From positions 352,780,001-352,844,000 of the forward strand of contig OZ024741.1 of the NCBI GenBank assembly GCA_964016885.1: a stretch of 64,000 nt of DNA, given 5' to 3'. This DNA is from Eledone cirrhosa (lineage: Eukaryota). A program made the position numbers and the translations under genes. Of the stretch, positions 4,443-12,817 are shown piece by piece. Each line of letters starts with the position of its first letter. Positions within the stretch are counted from its first letter, which is position 1. The notes beneath the pieces were generated by a model. That model did no database searches. It was not told where the DNA came from and worked only from the letters and a program-made list of their open reading frames with translations.

Positions 4443-4683
4443 ATGTAAGTATGCATGTATACGTACATACATATATGTATACAGACGTACAGTAGCATGC
4501 ACATATATATATATATATACATATATATATACATATGCATACAGGTACACATACATATATGCACGTATCAGTTTAGCGGCGCTAACGTCGCTTTGTTCGT
4601 TTGTAAACAAACTGAACAGCCTGAATTTATGCCATACGGTGTTAAGGCAACCACGTCACCTTTTTGTTCAACACTGACACAGG

Positions 4684-4728
4684 AACGATGTACTAGTTTC
4701 AAGCTTGTTAGCTATCATCAGCACCGTT
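4684..4728 (-). ncRNA. Minimal type I hammerhead ribozyme, 466-bp unit copy 1
   Basis: Reverse complement of AACGGUG-CUGAUGA-UAGCU(AACA)AGCUU-GAAA-CUAG-UA-CAUCGUU. Confidence 0.9.
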
Positions 4729-5149
4729 TACCCATCTGCCAGATAGTTGAACGTTCGAAAGTATATACTTTCCTTATGAAAATTAACGGCTGAGCAGCCT
4801 AATTTGCATATTGAGTGAGTTAAATCGGTCAGGCATACCGAAAACGATAAATTGAAACAAAATGAAAACGAAATTTCATTTCTCACTCTTAGTATGGCAC
4901 TTACTTAAATGTAAGTATGCATGTATACGTACATACATATATGTATACAGACGTACAGTAGCATGCACATATATATATATATATACATATATATATACAT
5001 ATGCATACAGGTACACATACATATATGCACGTATCAGTTTAGCGGCGCTAACGTCGCTTTGTTCGTTTGTAAACAAACTGAACAGCCTGAATTTATGCCA
5101 TACGGTGTTAAGGCAACCACGTCACCTTTTTGTTCAACACTGACACAGG

Positions 5150-5194
5150 AACGATGTACTAGTTTCAAGCTTGTTAGCTATCATCAGCACCGTT
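5150..5194 (-). ncRNA. Minimal type I hammerhead ribozyme, 466-bp unit copy 2
   Basis: Identical to 4684-4728, offset by 466. Confidence 0.9.
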
Positions 5195-5615
5195 TACCCA
5201 TCTGCCAGATAGTTGAACGTTCGAAAGTATATACTTTCCTTATGAAAATTAACGGCTGAGCAGCCTAATTTGCATATTGAGTGAGTTAAATCGGTCAGGC
5301 ATACCGAAAACGATAAATTGAAACAAAATGAAAACGAAATTTCATTTCTCACTCTTAGTATGGCACTTACTTAAATGTAAGTATGCATGTATACGTACAT
5401 ACATATATGTATACAGACGTACAGTAGCATGCACATATATATATATATATACATATATATATACATATGCATACAGGTACACATACATATATGCACGTAT
5501 CAGTTTAGCGGCGCTAACGTCGCTTTGTTCGTTTGTAAACAAACTGAACAGCCTGAATTTATGCCATACGGTGTTAAGGCAACCACATCACCTTTTTGTT
5601 CAACACTGACACAGG

Positions 5616-5660
5616 AACGATGTACTAGTTTCAAGCTTGTTAGCTATCATCAGCACCGTT
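5616..5660 (-). ncRNA. Minimal type I hammerhead ribozyme, 466-bp unit copy 3
   Basis: Identical to 4684-4728, offset by 932. Confidence 0.9.
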
Positions 5661-5765
5661 TACCCATCTGCCAGATAGTTGAACGTTCGAAAGTATATAT
5701 TTTCCTTATATTTTCCTTATATTTTCCTTATATTTTCGAACGTTCAACTATCTGGCAGATGGGTA

Positions 5766-5810
5766 AACGGTGCTGATGATAGCTAACAAGCTTGAAACTA
5801 GTACATCGTT
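5766..5810 (+). ncRNA. Minimal type I hammerhead ribozyme, inverted copy 1
   Basis: Helix I AACGGUG/CAUCGUU (7 bp, one G-U), core CUGAUGA and GAAA, helix II AGCU/AGCU closed by U-U, palindromic helix III ACUAGU. Predicted cleavage is after GUA at 5803. Confidence 0.9.
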
Positions 5811-6231
5811 CCTGTGTCAGTGTTGAACAAAAAGGTGACGTGGTTGCCTTAACACCGTATGGCATAAATTCAGGCTGTTCAGTTTGTTTACAAACGAACA
5901 AAGCGACGTTAGCGCCGCTAAACTGATACGTGCATATATGTATGTGTACCTGTATGCATATGTATATATATATGTATATATATATATATATGTGCATGCT
6001 ACTGTACGTCTGTATACATATATGTATGTACGTATACATGCATACTTACATTTAAGTAAGTGCCATACTAAGAGTGAGAAATGAAATTTCGTTTTCATTT
6101 TGTTTCAATTTATCGTTTTCGGTATGCCTGACCGATTTAACTCACTCAATATGCAAATTAGGCTGCTCAGCCGTTAATTTTCATAAGGAAAGTATATACT
6201 TTCGAACGTTCAACTATCTGGCAGATGGGTA

Positions 6232-6276
6232 AACGGTGCTGATGATAGCTAACAAGCTTGAAACTAGTACATCGTT
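6232..6276 (+). ncRNA. Minimal type I hammerhead ribozyme, inverted copy 2
   Basis: Identical to 5766-5810, offset by 466. Confidence 0.9.
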
Positions 6277-6576
6277 CCTGTGTCAGTGTTGAACAAAAAG
6301 GTGACGTGGTTGCCTTAACACCGTATGGCATAAATTCAGGCTGTTCAGTTTGTTTACAAACGAACAAAGCGACGTTAGCGCCGCTAAACTGATACGTGCA
6401 TATATGTATGTGTACCTGTATGCATATGTATATATATATGTATATATATATATATATGTGCATGCTACTGTACGTCTGTATACATATATGTATGTACGTA
6501 TACATGCATACTTACATTTAAGTAAGTGCCATACTAAGAGTGAGAAATGAAATTTCGTTTTCATTTTGTTTCAATT

Positions 6577-6668
<92 letters not shown>

Positions 6669-6991: not shown

Positions 6992-9494
6992 ATCATCATC
7001 ACCGTTTTACGTCCGTTCTTCCACGCTAGCATGGGTTAGAGGGGTTGTCCTGTTGTGGGCAGTGTCTGGTCGGCTGACCATGCCTTGCTCATACAGGAAC
7101 TGATCTGGCTTGATTTCTACAGCTGGATGCCCTTCCTAACACCAACCTCATTTACAGTGAGTGCTGGGTGCTTTTTCGTGGCGCCTACACGTCCACTTTA
7201 CAGTGTGGGCTGGGTGCTTTTTTGCCGTGGCACCTCCACGACCACCTTACGGTGGGGGGGGGAGGGGCATATTGTTTATATGCTTCAGCATGTACCCATG
7301 GGAGGTCGGGTACCCTGTATTACTGCGTGACGCCAGAAGTCACGGTCGTGTGTCATTGACTGTGAGAGGTGTAGTTGGGTAAGGTCGGCTTTTATCACCT
7401 CATCCCAAGTCATCTTGGGTCTCCCCACTCCGCGGTTTCCATCAACTACTAGTGCTCTGCACCTTTTTATGCAGCTGTTATCCTTCATACGCATCACATG
7501 TCCATACCAGCGTAACCGCCTCTCCTGCACGCAGCATTTGATTCCTCTTATGCTCAGTCTCTCTCTCAATTCCTTTATGCTTTGTCGTTCACGTATATTA
7601 CTGTTACACATCCATCGGAGCATGCAGGCTTCGTTTCTCTCTAATCTACGTAAGTCTTCCACCTTCAGCGCCCAGGTCTCACTACCATGCAACATCGCTG
7701 TTCGGATACACGCATCATACAGTCTGCCTTTCATTCTGAGGGAGAAGCCTTTTGCAGCTAGCAGTGGTAGTAGTTCCCTAAACTTCTTCCATCCCGTTCT
7801 TACCCTAGTTATTGTACTTTCTGAGCACCCACCTCCGTTGCTAATTCGGACACCTAGGTAGCAGAAGCTGTCTACTGTTTCTACAGGGCCCTCCCAGAGA
7901 TTGGTGGTACTTGTTTCCTGTGGTTGTTTGCTTGCTGTTTCAGCACAGCTGCTGCATGTGAATCCTACATTCTTAATTAAGCTTCCTGAGATCCCGCTAC
8001 ATCTCTTGTGTACCCATTGTTTGCATTTGGGGCAGAGAATGGAGTTCCTACCTACACCTTTCCTACATACTGAGCAAGGCCATTTCCCTGAGGGGATCTG
8101 GGTTCTGTTTTCTCGTCTACTTATAAGGACCTTAGTCTTTGTCATGTTGACTTTGAGGCCCTTTCTCTCTAGTCCCTGCTTCCAGGTTTGGAATTTATTC
8201 TCTAGTTCTACCATAGATTCAGCTATGAGTGCGAGGTCATCAGCATACAGGAGTTCCCATGGGCATCCGGTCTTAAACTCCTCCGTTATTGCCTGCAGGA
8301 CTATGATGAACAGGAGAGGGCTAAGAACAGAGCCCTGGTGGACCCCAACCTGTACGCTAAATTCCTCGCTATACTCATTGCCAATCCTAACCTTGCTGAC
8401 TGCTCCCCTATACATGGCTTGTACCGCTTTCACAAGCCATTCATCTACTCCTAGTTTTCTAAGAGCCCACCAGATTACTGCACGTGGAACTCTGTCAAAG
8501 GCTTTCTCAAGGTCGACAAATGCCAAGTAGAGTGGCTTACTTTTAGCTAGGTACTTTTCCTGTAATTGCCTCACAAGGAAGAGGGCATCAGTGGTGCCTT
8601 TCCCTGGTACAAACCCAAATTGCATCTCGTCTATATTCACCCGGTCCCTAATCAGCTGTGCTATAACTCTTTCTGTTACTTTCATGACCTGGTCCATCAA
8701 CTTTATACCTCTATAGTTTCCTCTATCTAGTGCATCGCCTTTACCTTTGTAGCAGTTGACAATGATGCTACTGCACCAATCTTTTGGTATGGCCCCCTCT
8801 AGTATTACCTGGTTAACGATACGTGTGGTTATAGTGTGACCTACAGACCCAGATGCCTTCAGCATCTCGGCAGCTATACCCGATGGACCGGTTGCCTTCC
8901 CTATCTTCATATCTCTGATTGCCTTACTTACTACGCTGCCGCTGACTTGTACTGCTGGTCCCTCTATAGGGTCTACGTGGGGTAGGGTCTCTTCTTCCCA
9001 TGCATTCTCCTCATTTAGTAATCTATCATAATGACTCTTCCATGCATCTTTCTTCTCAGCACTTGTGAGGGCAAGCTCACCTTTATCATTCCGGATACAC
9101 TTCTCTCCAATGACATCACAACTATCTCTGACACACTGCCTCGCAATCTTGAATACCTCCTGTTTCTGGTCCTCACGTTGTAAAACATGCTTGAATTTTC
9201 TATCCTCTGCTTCCCTCGTAGCTAAGTATACTTGTCGCCTAGCTTCCCTCTTGGTCTCTATGTAATGTACCCTGCTCCCCCCGTTCTTCCATTCTTTCCA
9301 TGCCTGTCTCTTGGCCTTGACTGCTTCATCTACCTTATTGTTCCACCACCAAGTCACTCTCCTCCTGCTTGAGGTCTTACTCCAGCCACAAACCTCATCC
9401 GTCGCCTCTAGTAAGTTATTTTTTAGGAACTCCCAGTTCTCTTCTACGTTAAATGTCTCTATCTGTTCTTCTTTACTGTCTGTTCTTCTTTACT
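6992..9494 (-). mobile_element. 5'-truncated RTE-clade LINE, young copy, inserted in (TA)n
   Basis: Uninterrupted RT ORF, 3' UTR and (TGA)n tail at ~6992-7000. The endonuclease domain is missing. Confidence 0.92.
7285..9357 (-). CDS. RTE LINE ORF2 fragment: reverse transcriptase plus C4-H-C3 (PHD-like) finger and RTE C-terminus
   Basis: RT motifs [52 protein letters not shown] and the C-terminal [15 protein letters not shown]. The reading frame has no natural 5' start. Confidence 0.88.
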
Positions 9495-10115
9495 TATATA
9501 TATATTTATATATATATTTATATATATATTTATATATATATTTATATATATATTTATATATATATTTATATATATATTTATATATATATTTATATATATA
9601 TTTATATATATATTTATATATTTATATATATATTTATATATATATTTATATATTTATATATATATTTATATATATATTTATATATATATTTATATATATA
9701 TTTATATATTTATGTATATATTTATGTATATATTTATATATATATTTATATATATATTTATATATATATGTATATATTTATATATATATTTATATATATA
9801 TTTATATATATATTTATATATATATTTTTATATATATATTTATATATTTATATATTTATATATTTATATATTTATATATATATTTATATATATAATATAT
9901 ATATTTATATATATAATATATATTTATATATATAATATATATATTTATATATATATATATATTTATATATTTATATATATATTTATATATTTATATATAT
10001 ATTTATATATATATTTATATATTTATATATATATTTATATATACATTATGAAGAGAGAAGAAACATTTAGATATAATTAGTAATAAAATGTATCATACCT
10101 AAACTGCTCCTAAAT

Positions 10116-10203
10116 TCCTCGACTACGTAGTTTCGTGGCATAAACAAAAACAATATATCAAAGATATAGAGTCCTTGCGAGGTCTGCCGACTTATCAAGA
10201 GGA
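10116..10203 (-). ncRNA. Type I hammerhead, U3-A8 variant with expanded helix II
   Basis: UCCUC-UUGAUAA-GUCGGCA...UGCCAC-GAAA-CUACGUAG-UC-GAGGA. Helix III is the perfect palindrome ACUACGUAGU and the cleavage triplet is GUC. Confidence 0.85.
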
Positions 10204-11109
10204 TACCTCATTTTACTAGTCTCAAGAACGCGTCTACACGACGTGAGAAAGAATCCCAAAAGGCGGAGGGGGAGATAGTCACGCGATATAACGGTCGAGA
10301 AACAGAGCTAAGCCTCTTATAACCCCGAAGAAAATACCACGGAGGCGGAGGGGGTATTTATATCGAGGCCGTAGAAGAGGTGGTGAAGAAGGCGAGAAGT
10401 ATGAGTAATGGAAGCTTTCCAGCTGTCCCCACACTTCAAAGGTTGCTCGACCAGAGGGAGTTATTAACAATATATTTAGAAACACACAGATACATGCGGA
10501 CACACACACATATATACATGAATGCATCCGCACCCAACTGTGAGTTAAGGGTGCCAACTTCACCGATGTTGCTCAATGAATGACTGGGACAGACCAATTC
10601 AGTTGAACTAGACTGAACCAGTATCAGAGTTAAAAATACATTATGAAGAGAGAAGAAACAGATATAATTAGACATTTAGATATAATTAGTAATAAAATGT
10701 ATCATACCTAAACTGCTCCTAAATTCCTCGACTACGTAGTTTCGTGGCATAAACAAAAACAATTTAGGAGCAGTTTAGGTATGATACATTTTATTACTAA
10801 TTATATCTAAATGTTTCTTCTCTCTTCATAATGTATTTTTAACTCTGATACTGGTTCAGTCTAGTTCAACTGAATTGGTCTGTCCCAGTCATTCATTGAG
10901 CAACATCGGTGAAGTTGGCACCCTTAACTCACAGTTGGGTGCGGATGCATTCATGTATATATGTGTGTGTGTCCGCATGTATCTGTGTGTTTCTAAATAT
11001 ATTGTTAATAACTCCCTCTGGTCGAGCAACCTTTGAAGTGTGGGGACAGCTGGAAAGCTTCCATTACTCATACTTCTCGCCTTCTTCACCACCTCTTCTA
11101 CGGCCTCGA

Positions 11110-11117
11110 TATAAATA
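11110..11117 (+). promoter_or_regulatory. Candidate TATA box of the 595-bp unit
   Basis: TATAAATA in a GC-richer context, ~150 bp upstream of the sense HHR. Function is inferred only. Confidence 0.35.
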
Positions 11118-11268
11118 CCCCCTCCGCCTCCGTGGTATTTTCTTCGGGGTTATAAGAGGCTTAGCTCTGTTTCTCGACCGTTATATCGCGTGACTATCTC
11201 CCCCTCCGCCTTTTGGGATTCTTTCTCACGTCGTGTAGACGCGTTCTTGAGACTAGTAAAATGAGGTA

Positions 11269-11356
11269 TCCTCTTGATAAGTCGGCAGACCTCGCAAGGA
11301 CTCTATATCTTTGATATATTGTTTTTGTTTATGCCACGAAACTATGTAGTCGAGGA
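11269..11356 (+). ncRNA. Type I hammerhead, U3-A8 variant with expanded helix II (inverted copy)
   Basis: Same as 10116-10203 except a C>T change in helix III (ACTATGTAGT). Confidence 0.82.
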
Positions 11357-11655
11357 ATTTAGGAGCAGTTTAGGTATGATACATTTTATTACTAATTATA
11401 TCTAAATGTTTCTTCTCTCTTCATAATGTATTTTTAACTCTGATACTGGTTCAGTCTAGTTCAACTGAATTGGTCTGTCCCAGTCATTCATTGAGCAACA
11501 TCGGTGAAGTTGGCACCCTTAACTCACAGTTGGGTGCGGATGCATTCATGTATATATGTGTGTGTGTCCGCATGTATCTGTGTGTTTCTAAATATATTAT
11601 ATTTATATATATATATTTATATTTATATATATTTATATTTATATATATTTATATT

Positions 11656-11712
<57 letters not shown>

Positions 11713-11713
11713 T

Positions 11714-11750
<37 letters not shown>

Positions 11751-11751
11751 T

Positions 11752-11782
<31 letters not shown>

Positions 11783-11825
11783 TTATATATATATTTATAT
11801 ATATTTTTATATATATATTTATATA

Positions 11826-11863
<38 letters not shown>

Positions 11864-12399: not shown

Positions 12400-12565
12400 T
12401 AGGGACCCCAGTCCCTATCATCTCATTTTTACAGCTGAGTAAACTGGAGCAATGTGAAATAAAGTGTCTTGCTCAAGGAAACAACACATCACCCAGTCTG
12501 AGAATTGAACTCACAACCTTTCGATTGCAAGGCCAATGCTCTAACCACTAAGCCATGTGCCTCCA
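12400..12565 (-). mobile_element. tRNA-derived CORE-type SINE
   Basis: Minus strand has A-box TGGCTTAGTGG, B-box GTTCAATTC and core CTTGAGCAAGACACTT..CTCAGCTGTAAAAATGAG. Related copies lie at ~15820-16120 (+), ~48350-48450 (+) and ~62840-62985 (+). Confidence 0.7.
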
Positions 12566-12746: not shown

Positions 12747-12817
12747 GATGTGTTGGTATAATGGTAGCACAGTGGTCTGGATAACCAAAGATGTGGGTTC
12801 GACTTCCATGTACGTCA
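12747..12817 (+). pseudogene. tRNA-like cloverleaf (pseudo-tRNA, GGA at anticodon position)
   Basis: Acceptor GATGTGT/GTACGTC (several G-U pairs), A-box TGGTATAATGGT, anticodon arm TGGT-CTGGATA-ACCA, T arm GTGGG-TTCGACT-TCCAT. Confidence 0.55.

Follow-up and report, generated by a model that had tools for sequence, protein, structure and literature searches.

The window, the whole stretch of 64,000 nucleotides of Eledone cirrhosa DNA that was analysed, holds at 10041-11598 one head-to-head insertion of a 595-bp unit between two (TA)n-type tracts, and these microsatellites (9494..10040 on the left and 11599..11861 on the right) were presumably the target of the insertion. The left arm lies on the minus strand and consists of a full unit (10041..10635), whose 3′ end (unit position 595) adjoins the left tract 80 nt beyond the predicted cleavage site, and of a 5′-truncated partial unit (10636..10766; unit positions 479-595 with a 14-nt insertion) that retains only the 3′ half of the hammerhead motif described below. 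The right arm, on the plus strand, runs from a second 5′-truncated partial unit (10761..10836; 520-595) through a full unit (10837..11431) into a 167-nt "tail" (11432..11598; unit positions 1-167), which ends at a second fixed 3′ end and adjoins the right tract. The two arms overlap by a few bases at the inversion junction (10761-10766), and their full units differ at a single base. The earlier note on this DNA had described a family of 595-bp units at 10041..11596; both full units are indeed there, but not as a simple tandem, the region being an inverted insertion with partial units in its centre and a 167-nt extension at its right end. It is this retroelement architecture, missed in the first reading, that accounts for the locus.

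Each full unit carries a motif that, judged by its sequence, is a real type I hammerhead with predicted cleavage after a GUC triplet. In the left arm (10116..10203, minus strand), where the motif is intact, helix I pairs 10203-10199 with 10120-10116, the core UUGAUAA occupies 10198-10192, the helix II rod extends over 10191-10135 and is followed by GAA, the palindrome of helix III lies at 10131-10122, and C17 is found at 10121. In the right arm (11269..11356, plus strand), helix I is formed by 11269-11273 and 11352-11356, the core lies at 11274-11280, helix II at 11281-11337, helix III at 11341-11350, and C17 at 11351. Common to both copies are helix I (UCCUC/GAGGA, 5 bp, paired and open-ended), the core UUGAUAA (U3...A8), GAA, helix III, the GUC triplet, and a helix II base (GU-C-GGCA/UGCC-AC) that closes a 44-nt insert. 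The core nucleotides 3-9 and 12-14, A15.1-U16.1, and H17 are all in place in both (UUGAUAA...GAA-A...U-C). Helix II starts with G10.1-C11.1, and its base pairs are kept in 57-60 of 60 units. Helix III, the 10-nt palindrome ACUACGUAGU, would permit a dimer and on its own is predicted to form no monomer hairpin; it is intact in the minus copy and broken in the plus copy by C>U at 11345, with which the predicted energy of the 10-bp homodimer goes from −12.9 to −6.4 kcal/mol.

Most of what the earlier note had said of the motif thus holds for both copies, namely the core with C3>U together with G8>A, helix I, the helix II base, and GUC, while its palindromic helix III holds for the minus copy but not for the plus copy. 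Its statement that U3-A8 preserves the Watson-Crick pair between positions 3 and 8 is likewise supported, the pair being kept as U-A in both copies. Standard searches do miss the motif, as had been predicted: Rfam gave no hammerhead at gathering scores in the whole window or at E ≤ 10 in the region, where the matches were sub-threshold, miRNA-like hairpins only.

Closer inspection of the window revealed several other features. At 4443-6577, a "first" family with a 466-bp unit in tandem is likewise inverted head-to-head in (TA)n; it has a canonical CUGAUGA core (5773 and 6239 on the plus strand; 5653, 5187, and 4721 on the minus strand), an ACUAGU palindrome, and a GUA site, its two ends differ by about 60 nt, and relatives of it occur at loci L173 (90-95%) and L174 (78%). 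Two tRNA-like Rfam matches, at 12747-12817 (plus strand, 37.9 bits) and 12494-12557 (minus strand, 29.9 bits), are probably the heads of tRNA-derived SINEs. A fragment of a longer open frame at about 8830-9480 (minus strand), also present beside locus L034, gives the impression of a decayed LINE.

Copy number and the fixed U3-A8 pair

Copies were counted in the whole 3.0-Gb genome. A 19-mer in which positions 3 and 8 could vary had 6,107 matches and its reversed control none, which excludes a chance origin of the motif, and a pattern extending from the core to helix III had 6,014. A DNA search with the unit returned 1,373 candidates, of which 39 were scored, and the top full-length copies were 98-100% identical. 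Older subfamilies were reached by similarity walks from two old copies. Identity has a median of 98.0% within a set of 30 young units, of 94.6% within a set of 30 older ones, and of 82.8% between the two sets. The longest stop-to-stop frame inside the unit has 97 codons, as expected of a non-coding element. Units that are 100% identical (rounded) to those of the window lie on other contigs (L002/L003 on C17, L004 on C3), and together they suggest, by their sequence, a very recent sub-lineage. The 402-codon frame adjoining the unit in L004 gave a weak zf-CCHC match only and was therefore set aside as host sequence at the insertion site. Short contigs from four of 24 sequencing runs, mostly at depth 2-7, carry no weight for expression, host range, or transfer.

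The U3-A8 state was found in 6,080 of the 6,107 matches of the 19-mer, in all 60 aligned young and older units, and in 57/57 rows of a third subfamily set, whose rows include overlapping loci and a few young copies. A C3-G8 version with the helix II of the family had no match in the genome, a second genome pattern search for C3-G8 or short-helix-II relatives gave none either, and the two similarity walks to older subfamilies met U3-A8 only. A further pattern for relatives had 16 matches (2 in the reversed control), which by eye were deletion derivatives of the family or chance. Since every subfamily row is U3-A8, the pair is a fixed state and not a covariation inside the family, contrary to what had been supposed.

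Outside the family, U3-A8 was found in two other hammerhead families of the genome. A relaxed hammerhead descriptor with positions 3 and 8 free, applied to the window and to 50 loci with GIY-YIG matches, recovered four distinct motifs, three with U3-A8, one with C3-G8, and none mismatched; on three shuffles of 327,842 bases it had no match. Across families, these four motifs give a small hint of 3-8 covariation at the sequence level. A third U3-A8 hammerhead-like motif (UUGAUAA, ACCGGU palindrome) lies downstream of a GIY-YIG match at L141:2205 (plus strand). At L166:93 (minus strand) and L179:6462 (plus strand), near loci of Penelope-like elements (PLEs), there are hammerhead-like motifs with C3-G8 and 8-nt palindromes in which helix II is long (26 and 35 nt); the descriptor above, stricter than the search that detected them, failed to recover them.

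Conservation and predicted folding of the hammerhead

The 34 sites of the core, helix II base, and helix III show no majority difference between the young and the older subfamily, compared to 83 in the other 496 sites of the unit (Fisher p = 0.005); the helix II insert has 8 in 44. The 5′ half of the conserved block is biased toward invariance, the 19-mer having served to pick the young loci as well as the seed of the older set, and for the 20 unbiased 3′ sites zero differences have a probability of about 0.03 (hand calculation). Pair 2 of helix I is U-A in 30/30 young units, and in 30 older units it is C-G (15), U·G (14), or U-A (1); judged from the aligned units, these changes are real compensation. 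Furthermore, three subfamilies agree in every catalytic position, in G10.1-C11.1, and in retaining the NUH triplet and the palindrome. The unit has invariant blocks of 27-28 nt elsewhere too, and its last 34 nt are likewise conserved.

Deviations at the free position 7 were seen in 9 genomic copies, and at positions 3 and 8 together in 27. With position 7 as invariant as 3 and 8, copy-level invariance reflects the youth of the family, and we rejected genome-wide invariance as proof of selection, the position-7 control showing no excess at 3 and 8. The covariation in helix I and a block conserved between subfamilies that are 17% apart nevertheless make selection on the fold plausible. Of the earlier claim that selection has maintained activity, some selection therefore stays plausible, but the invariance of copies is of no use to it.

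Helix II is predicted to be an unbranched rod of 57-59 nt, in which CAAGGAC pairs with GUUUUUG, with a fold energy of −16.6 kcal/mol compared to −6.2 kcal/mol for the branched fold of the earlier note, which is 10 kcal/mol worse. Seven of the eight rod pairs are kept in 56-60 of 59-60 full units via A-U/G·U exchanges, and the outermost one in 29/60. The three CCU/AGG pairs of the branched fold, kept in 37/60, 28/60, and 58/60 full units, have a probability of 0.0 in the predicted fold. The older subfamily, in which helix II reads CAAAAAC/GUUUUUG, folds as the same rod and breaks the branched fold. Hence, the CCU/AGG sub-hairpin falls, whereas the apical UAUAUC/GAUAUA hairpin was right. All subfamilies retain an insert of 44-50 nt, and copies with a deletion are rare and have not spread.

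The RNA of the hammerhead strand is highly self-paired, as is that of retrozymes: it folds better than shuffles both as a linear (z = −7.3) and as a circular molecule (z = −7.4, 40 shuffles), and with z = −1.6 for the antisense strand the bias is strand-specific. The hammerhead itself is not the predicted ground state in its native context. Helix I has a probability of 0 with a long 5′ context, and only a short construct that stops 10 nt beyond the site raises it to about 0.7; in the native context, GAGGA is taken up by a downstream hairpin, so that forcing the hammerhead comes at a cost of 7.3 kcal/mol. A hammerhead outcompeted in this way would need the palindrome dimer, co-transcriptional folding, or help from a protein. 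A stem joining the two 3′ ends has a probability above 0.5 in 23 of 32 loci and of 0.0-0.44 in all 8 older-subfamily loci; being AU-rich and absent from the older subfamily, it was rejected as a conserved feature and kept as a lead only.

Insertion ends and Penelope-like elements of the genome

The ends were read from 56 loci, all but one of which are clusters formed by the first 100 matches, in order of position, on contig 1. These loci contain 57 insertions, of which 30 are inverted. In 28 of the inverted insertions, one arm ends at unit position 595 and the other at about 167; one has 595 twice, and one has an end that could not be classed. The rule of one end of each kind thus applies to 28/29 inverted insertions with two classed ends (p = 1e-7 against 0.5). 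Among the 27 uninverted insertions, 13 end at 595, 13 at 167, and 1 elsewhere. The 5′ ends are scattered, and 80/87 of the 3′ flanks are TA-rich. Tandem arrays of several full units also exist, for example at L010-L012 and L070. Partial tandems, 5′ truncation, an inverted arm, two 3′ ends, and an AT-rich or microsatellite target, as in PLE-type insertions, are all found. The 167-nt tail with its one-of-each end rule is the most notable new feature of the family.

Copies of different families or subfamilies adjoin or nest within one another in common (TA)n tracts at G000:C1:2952343-2954760 (L033, L189, L190) and at L142, L211, and L216. In L044 (G000:C1:19618700-19625200), a whole inverted insertion occurs twice, 2.55 kb apart and with identical junctions, which is either a local duplication or an assembly artefact.

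Candidate machinery for such insertions is present in the same genome, where 10,596 GIY-YIG candidates were counted and 150 scored. Locus L163 (G000:C1:145868300-145876500) holds a 938-codon open frame between 99%-identical repeats; its GIY-YIG match is over the cut-off, and its RVT_1 match (E 2e-6) is just under it. Each repeat contains a U3-A8 hammerhead with the core UUGAAAA, a short helix II, and an ACCGGU palindrome, and the element ends in (TA)n. A CX4CX2C linker before the endonuclease suggests, by comparison with the available parts of PMC8557442, that the element is Neptune-type. Its hammerhead motif has 6,872 genomic matches, with U3-A8 in all 100 among the matches listed. In short copies of this type (5 loci), the two ends differ: one is about 142 nt beyond the cleavage site, and that of the opposite arm is reached earlier, at 67-105 nt. 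The same putatively autonomous element type, with reverse transcriptase and GIY-YIG, was seen at L164, L168, L171, L174, and L131.

The L163 element is a candidate helper for the 595-bp unit, with which it has no significant nucleotide similarity. Indeed, blastn of the unit against the PLE repeats in 50 GIY-YIG loci (from the 150 scored of 10,596) gave no significant match, and the sole match of the unit in these loci was a nested family copy in L142. PLE protein fragments lie near 5 of 150 family loci, and no copy in the 150 was placed as a flanking repeat (pLTR) of a PLE frame. No autonomous partner carrying a unit-like pLTR was thus found in the 50 GIY-YIG and 150 family loci.

A retroelement reading and its rivals

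The family is a variant of a known element kind rather than a new ribozyme, as comparison with the available parts of the published sources indicates. U3-A8 is no novelty: Perreault et al. 2011 (PMC3088659) described several natural examples, in which C3-G8 is replaced and the pair kept as in the family, citing previous studies for activity in vitro, and about 1,300 U3-A8 motifs are related to the Cercyon PLEs of Schistosoma (PMC4209133); the 3-8 pair is described in PMC3884650. In contrast to the "several" examples in the available part of PMC3088659, at least two families, unrelated to each other and each with over 6,000 copies of the motif, have U3-A8 as their fixed state here. The minimal hammerheads associated with PLEs, among them the U3-A8 variant of the Cercyon elements of Schistosoma mansoni, share with the family type I, a 5-bp helix I, a palindromic helix III that implies dimers, G10.1-C11.1, and the U3-A8 core, and PLE hammerheads in the same source also include motifs in opposite orientation 100-700 bp apart and, in Drosophila virilis, a helix II bulge, both like the family. 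As far as this source was available, the family differs in a helix II far longer than 7-8 bp, in having no unpaired base between 9 and 10.1, and in the homogeneity of its copies (98% median in the young subfamily compared to heterogeneous motifs).

Tandem type I non-LTR retrozymes of metazoans (PMC7229834; 10.64898/2026.07.22.740005) resemble the family in their non-coding units, thousands of copies, strongly folded RNA, unit size (reported as 51-972 bp), and co-occurrence with PLEs; they have been tied to PLE pLTRs, and of the nine retrozyme dimers predicted for Xenopus only one showed cleavage in vitro (10.64898/2026.07.22.740005). Compared to what the available parts of these sources report, the family differs in the U3-A8 core, the 57-59-nt helix II rod, and the 10-nt palindromic helix III; its unit exceeds the 170-400-nt invertebrate circles, and no pLTR homologue was found in the loci compared. 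Palindromic, dimeric PLE hammerheads have been reviewed (PMC6765202). EN+ PLEs and their non-autonomous derivatives (PMC8557442, PMC11167929) have in common with the family partial tandems, 5′ truncation, an inverted 5′-truncated arm, an optional tail at one end, and (TA)n targeting, whereas the family is without an ORF and, going by the parts of these papers available, has a tail of 167 nt rather than 30-40 nt (the latter often one-ended; PMC8557442) and a near-strict one-of-each end rule. In an anole PLE, two internal start sites of reverse transcription bound the tail (PMC11167929). In the literature, surveyed mostly in outline and without supplements, we found neither the family nor a 57-59-nt helix II in such elements nor a 167-nt tail.

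In sum, we consider it probable, and hold with good confidence, that the family belongs with the non-LTR retrozymes, as a young, non-autonomous element whose 595-bp unit is mobilised by PLEs and copied into (TA)n tracts; in its tandem, 5′-truncated, and inverted copies and its two fixed 3′ ends, it agrees with non-autonomous elements of the Penelope type. Counting against this reading are the failure to find a partner in the loci compared, the predicted native fold, the invariance of position 7 and of other blocks in the unit, the single cleaving dimer among nine from Xenopus, and the lack of effect of hammerhead mutants on PLE insertion in vitro (PMC11167929). In our model, tandem arrays would be transcribed, and the reverse transcriptase and GIY-YIG endonuclease of a PLE would copy the unit, the protein nicking both strands of a (TA)n tract. 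Reverse transcription would begin at one of two internal sites of the RNA, separated by 167 nt, and would continue through tandem units until the copy is 5′-truncated, and the two arms, primed from opposite strands, would be joined head-to-head. The hammerhead may fold mainly as a dimer via its 10-nt palindrome, possibly with the help of a protein, and its cut after GUC would produce unit-length or circular RNA. U3-A8 would be a tolerated core state inherited by the whole family, and the helix II insert a predicted unbranched rod without an assigned role.

The same retroelement might carry a hammerhead that does not cleave in vivo, the block being kept as a binding or folding element for the PLE protein. 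We think this rather unlikely, and it overlaps with the reading above, since a non-cleaving hammerhead is compatible with the same mobility. The predicted loss of helix I in the native context is in its favour, as are a free position 7 and an ACCUC linker as fixed as the core. Furthermore, the hammerhead of the anole PLE needs protein to cleave, insertion in vitro can do without it, mutants having no effect there, and no reads ended at its cleavage site in the available part of the study (PMC11167929). However, the positions, pair, triplet, and palindrome listed above as kept across three subfamilies include the catalytic ones, the changes in helix I preserve pairing, and U3-A8 hammerheads are reported as active in vitro (PMC3088659, citing earlier work).

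It is improbable that the unit is a satellite or foldback repeat spread as DNA, by a rolling-circle DNA element or by recombination of TA tracts, with a relic hammerhead. Head-to-tail arrays with large inverted repeats would fit such a history, DNA mechanisms could also attain the spread in copy number, and no partner element was found in the loci compared; yet the insertions are polar, with fixed 3′ ends and scattered 5′ truncations, which is what reverse transcription should produce, only the hammerhead strand folds better than shuffles, and an RT-encoding PLE of the same genome has similar paired ends in TA tracts (5 loci). A structurally new hammerhead class, in which a branched helix II provides tertiary contacts and U3-A8 arose by compensation within the family, is very improbable: the long insert (44-50 nt) is kept in all subfamilies and deletion copies have not spread, but the branched fold has a probability of 0.0 and is lost in the older subfamily, the genome searches found no C3-G8 relative, and two other hammerhead families of the genome have U3-A8.

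Returning to the PLE-mobilised retrozyme, two things are worth following, the end rule together with the long tail, and the sharing of a U3-A8 core with a co-abundant, putatively autonomous PLE. In the Eledone cirrhosa genome, about 13,000 hammerhead motifs of two young families would escape CUGANGA descriptors, and since Rfam misses the motif of the window as well, such hammerhead censuses undercount. For PLE inverted insertions with a one-sided tail, the family offers a countable rule (28/29) and an unusually long tail. It is possible, and we put it forward tentatively, that the two start sites of reverse transcription are a coupled pair, an RT/EN dimer priming one nicked strand at the proximal and the other at the distal site, with the sites, 167 nt apart, joined by RNA folding, and that the U3-A8 hammerhead with its long helix II is a protein-assisted dimeric switch common to the co-active autonomous PLE. 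If true, thousands of near-identical insertions would be a natural read-out of the PLE insertion mechanism.
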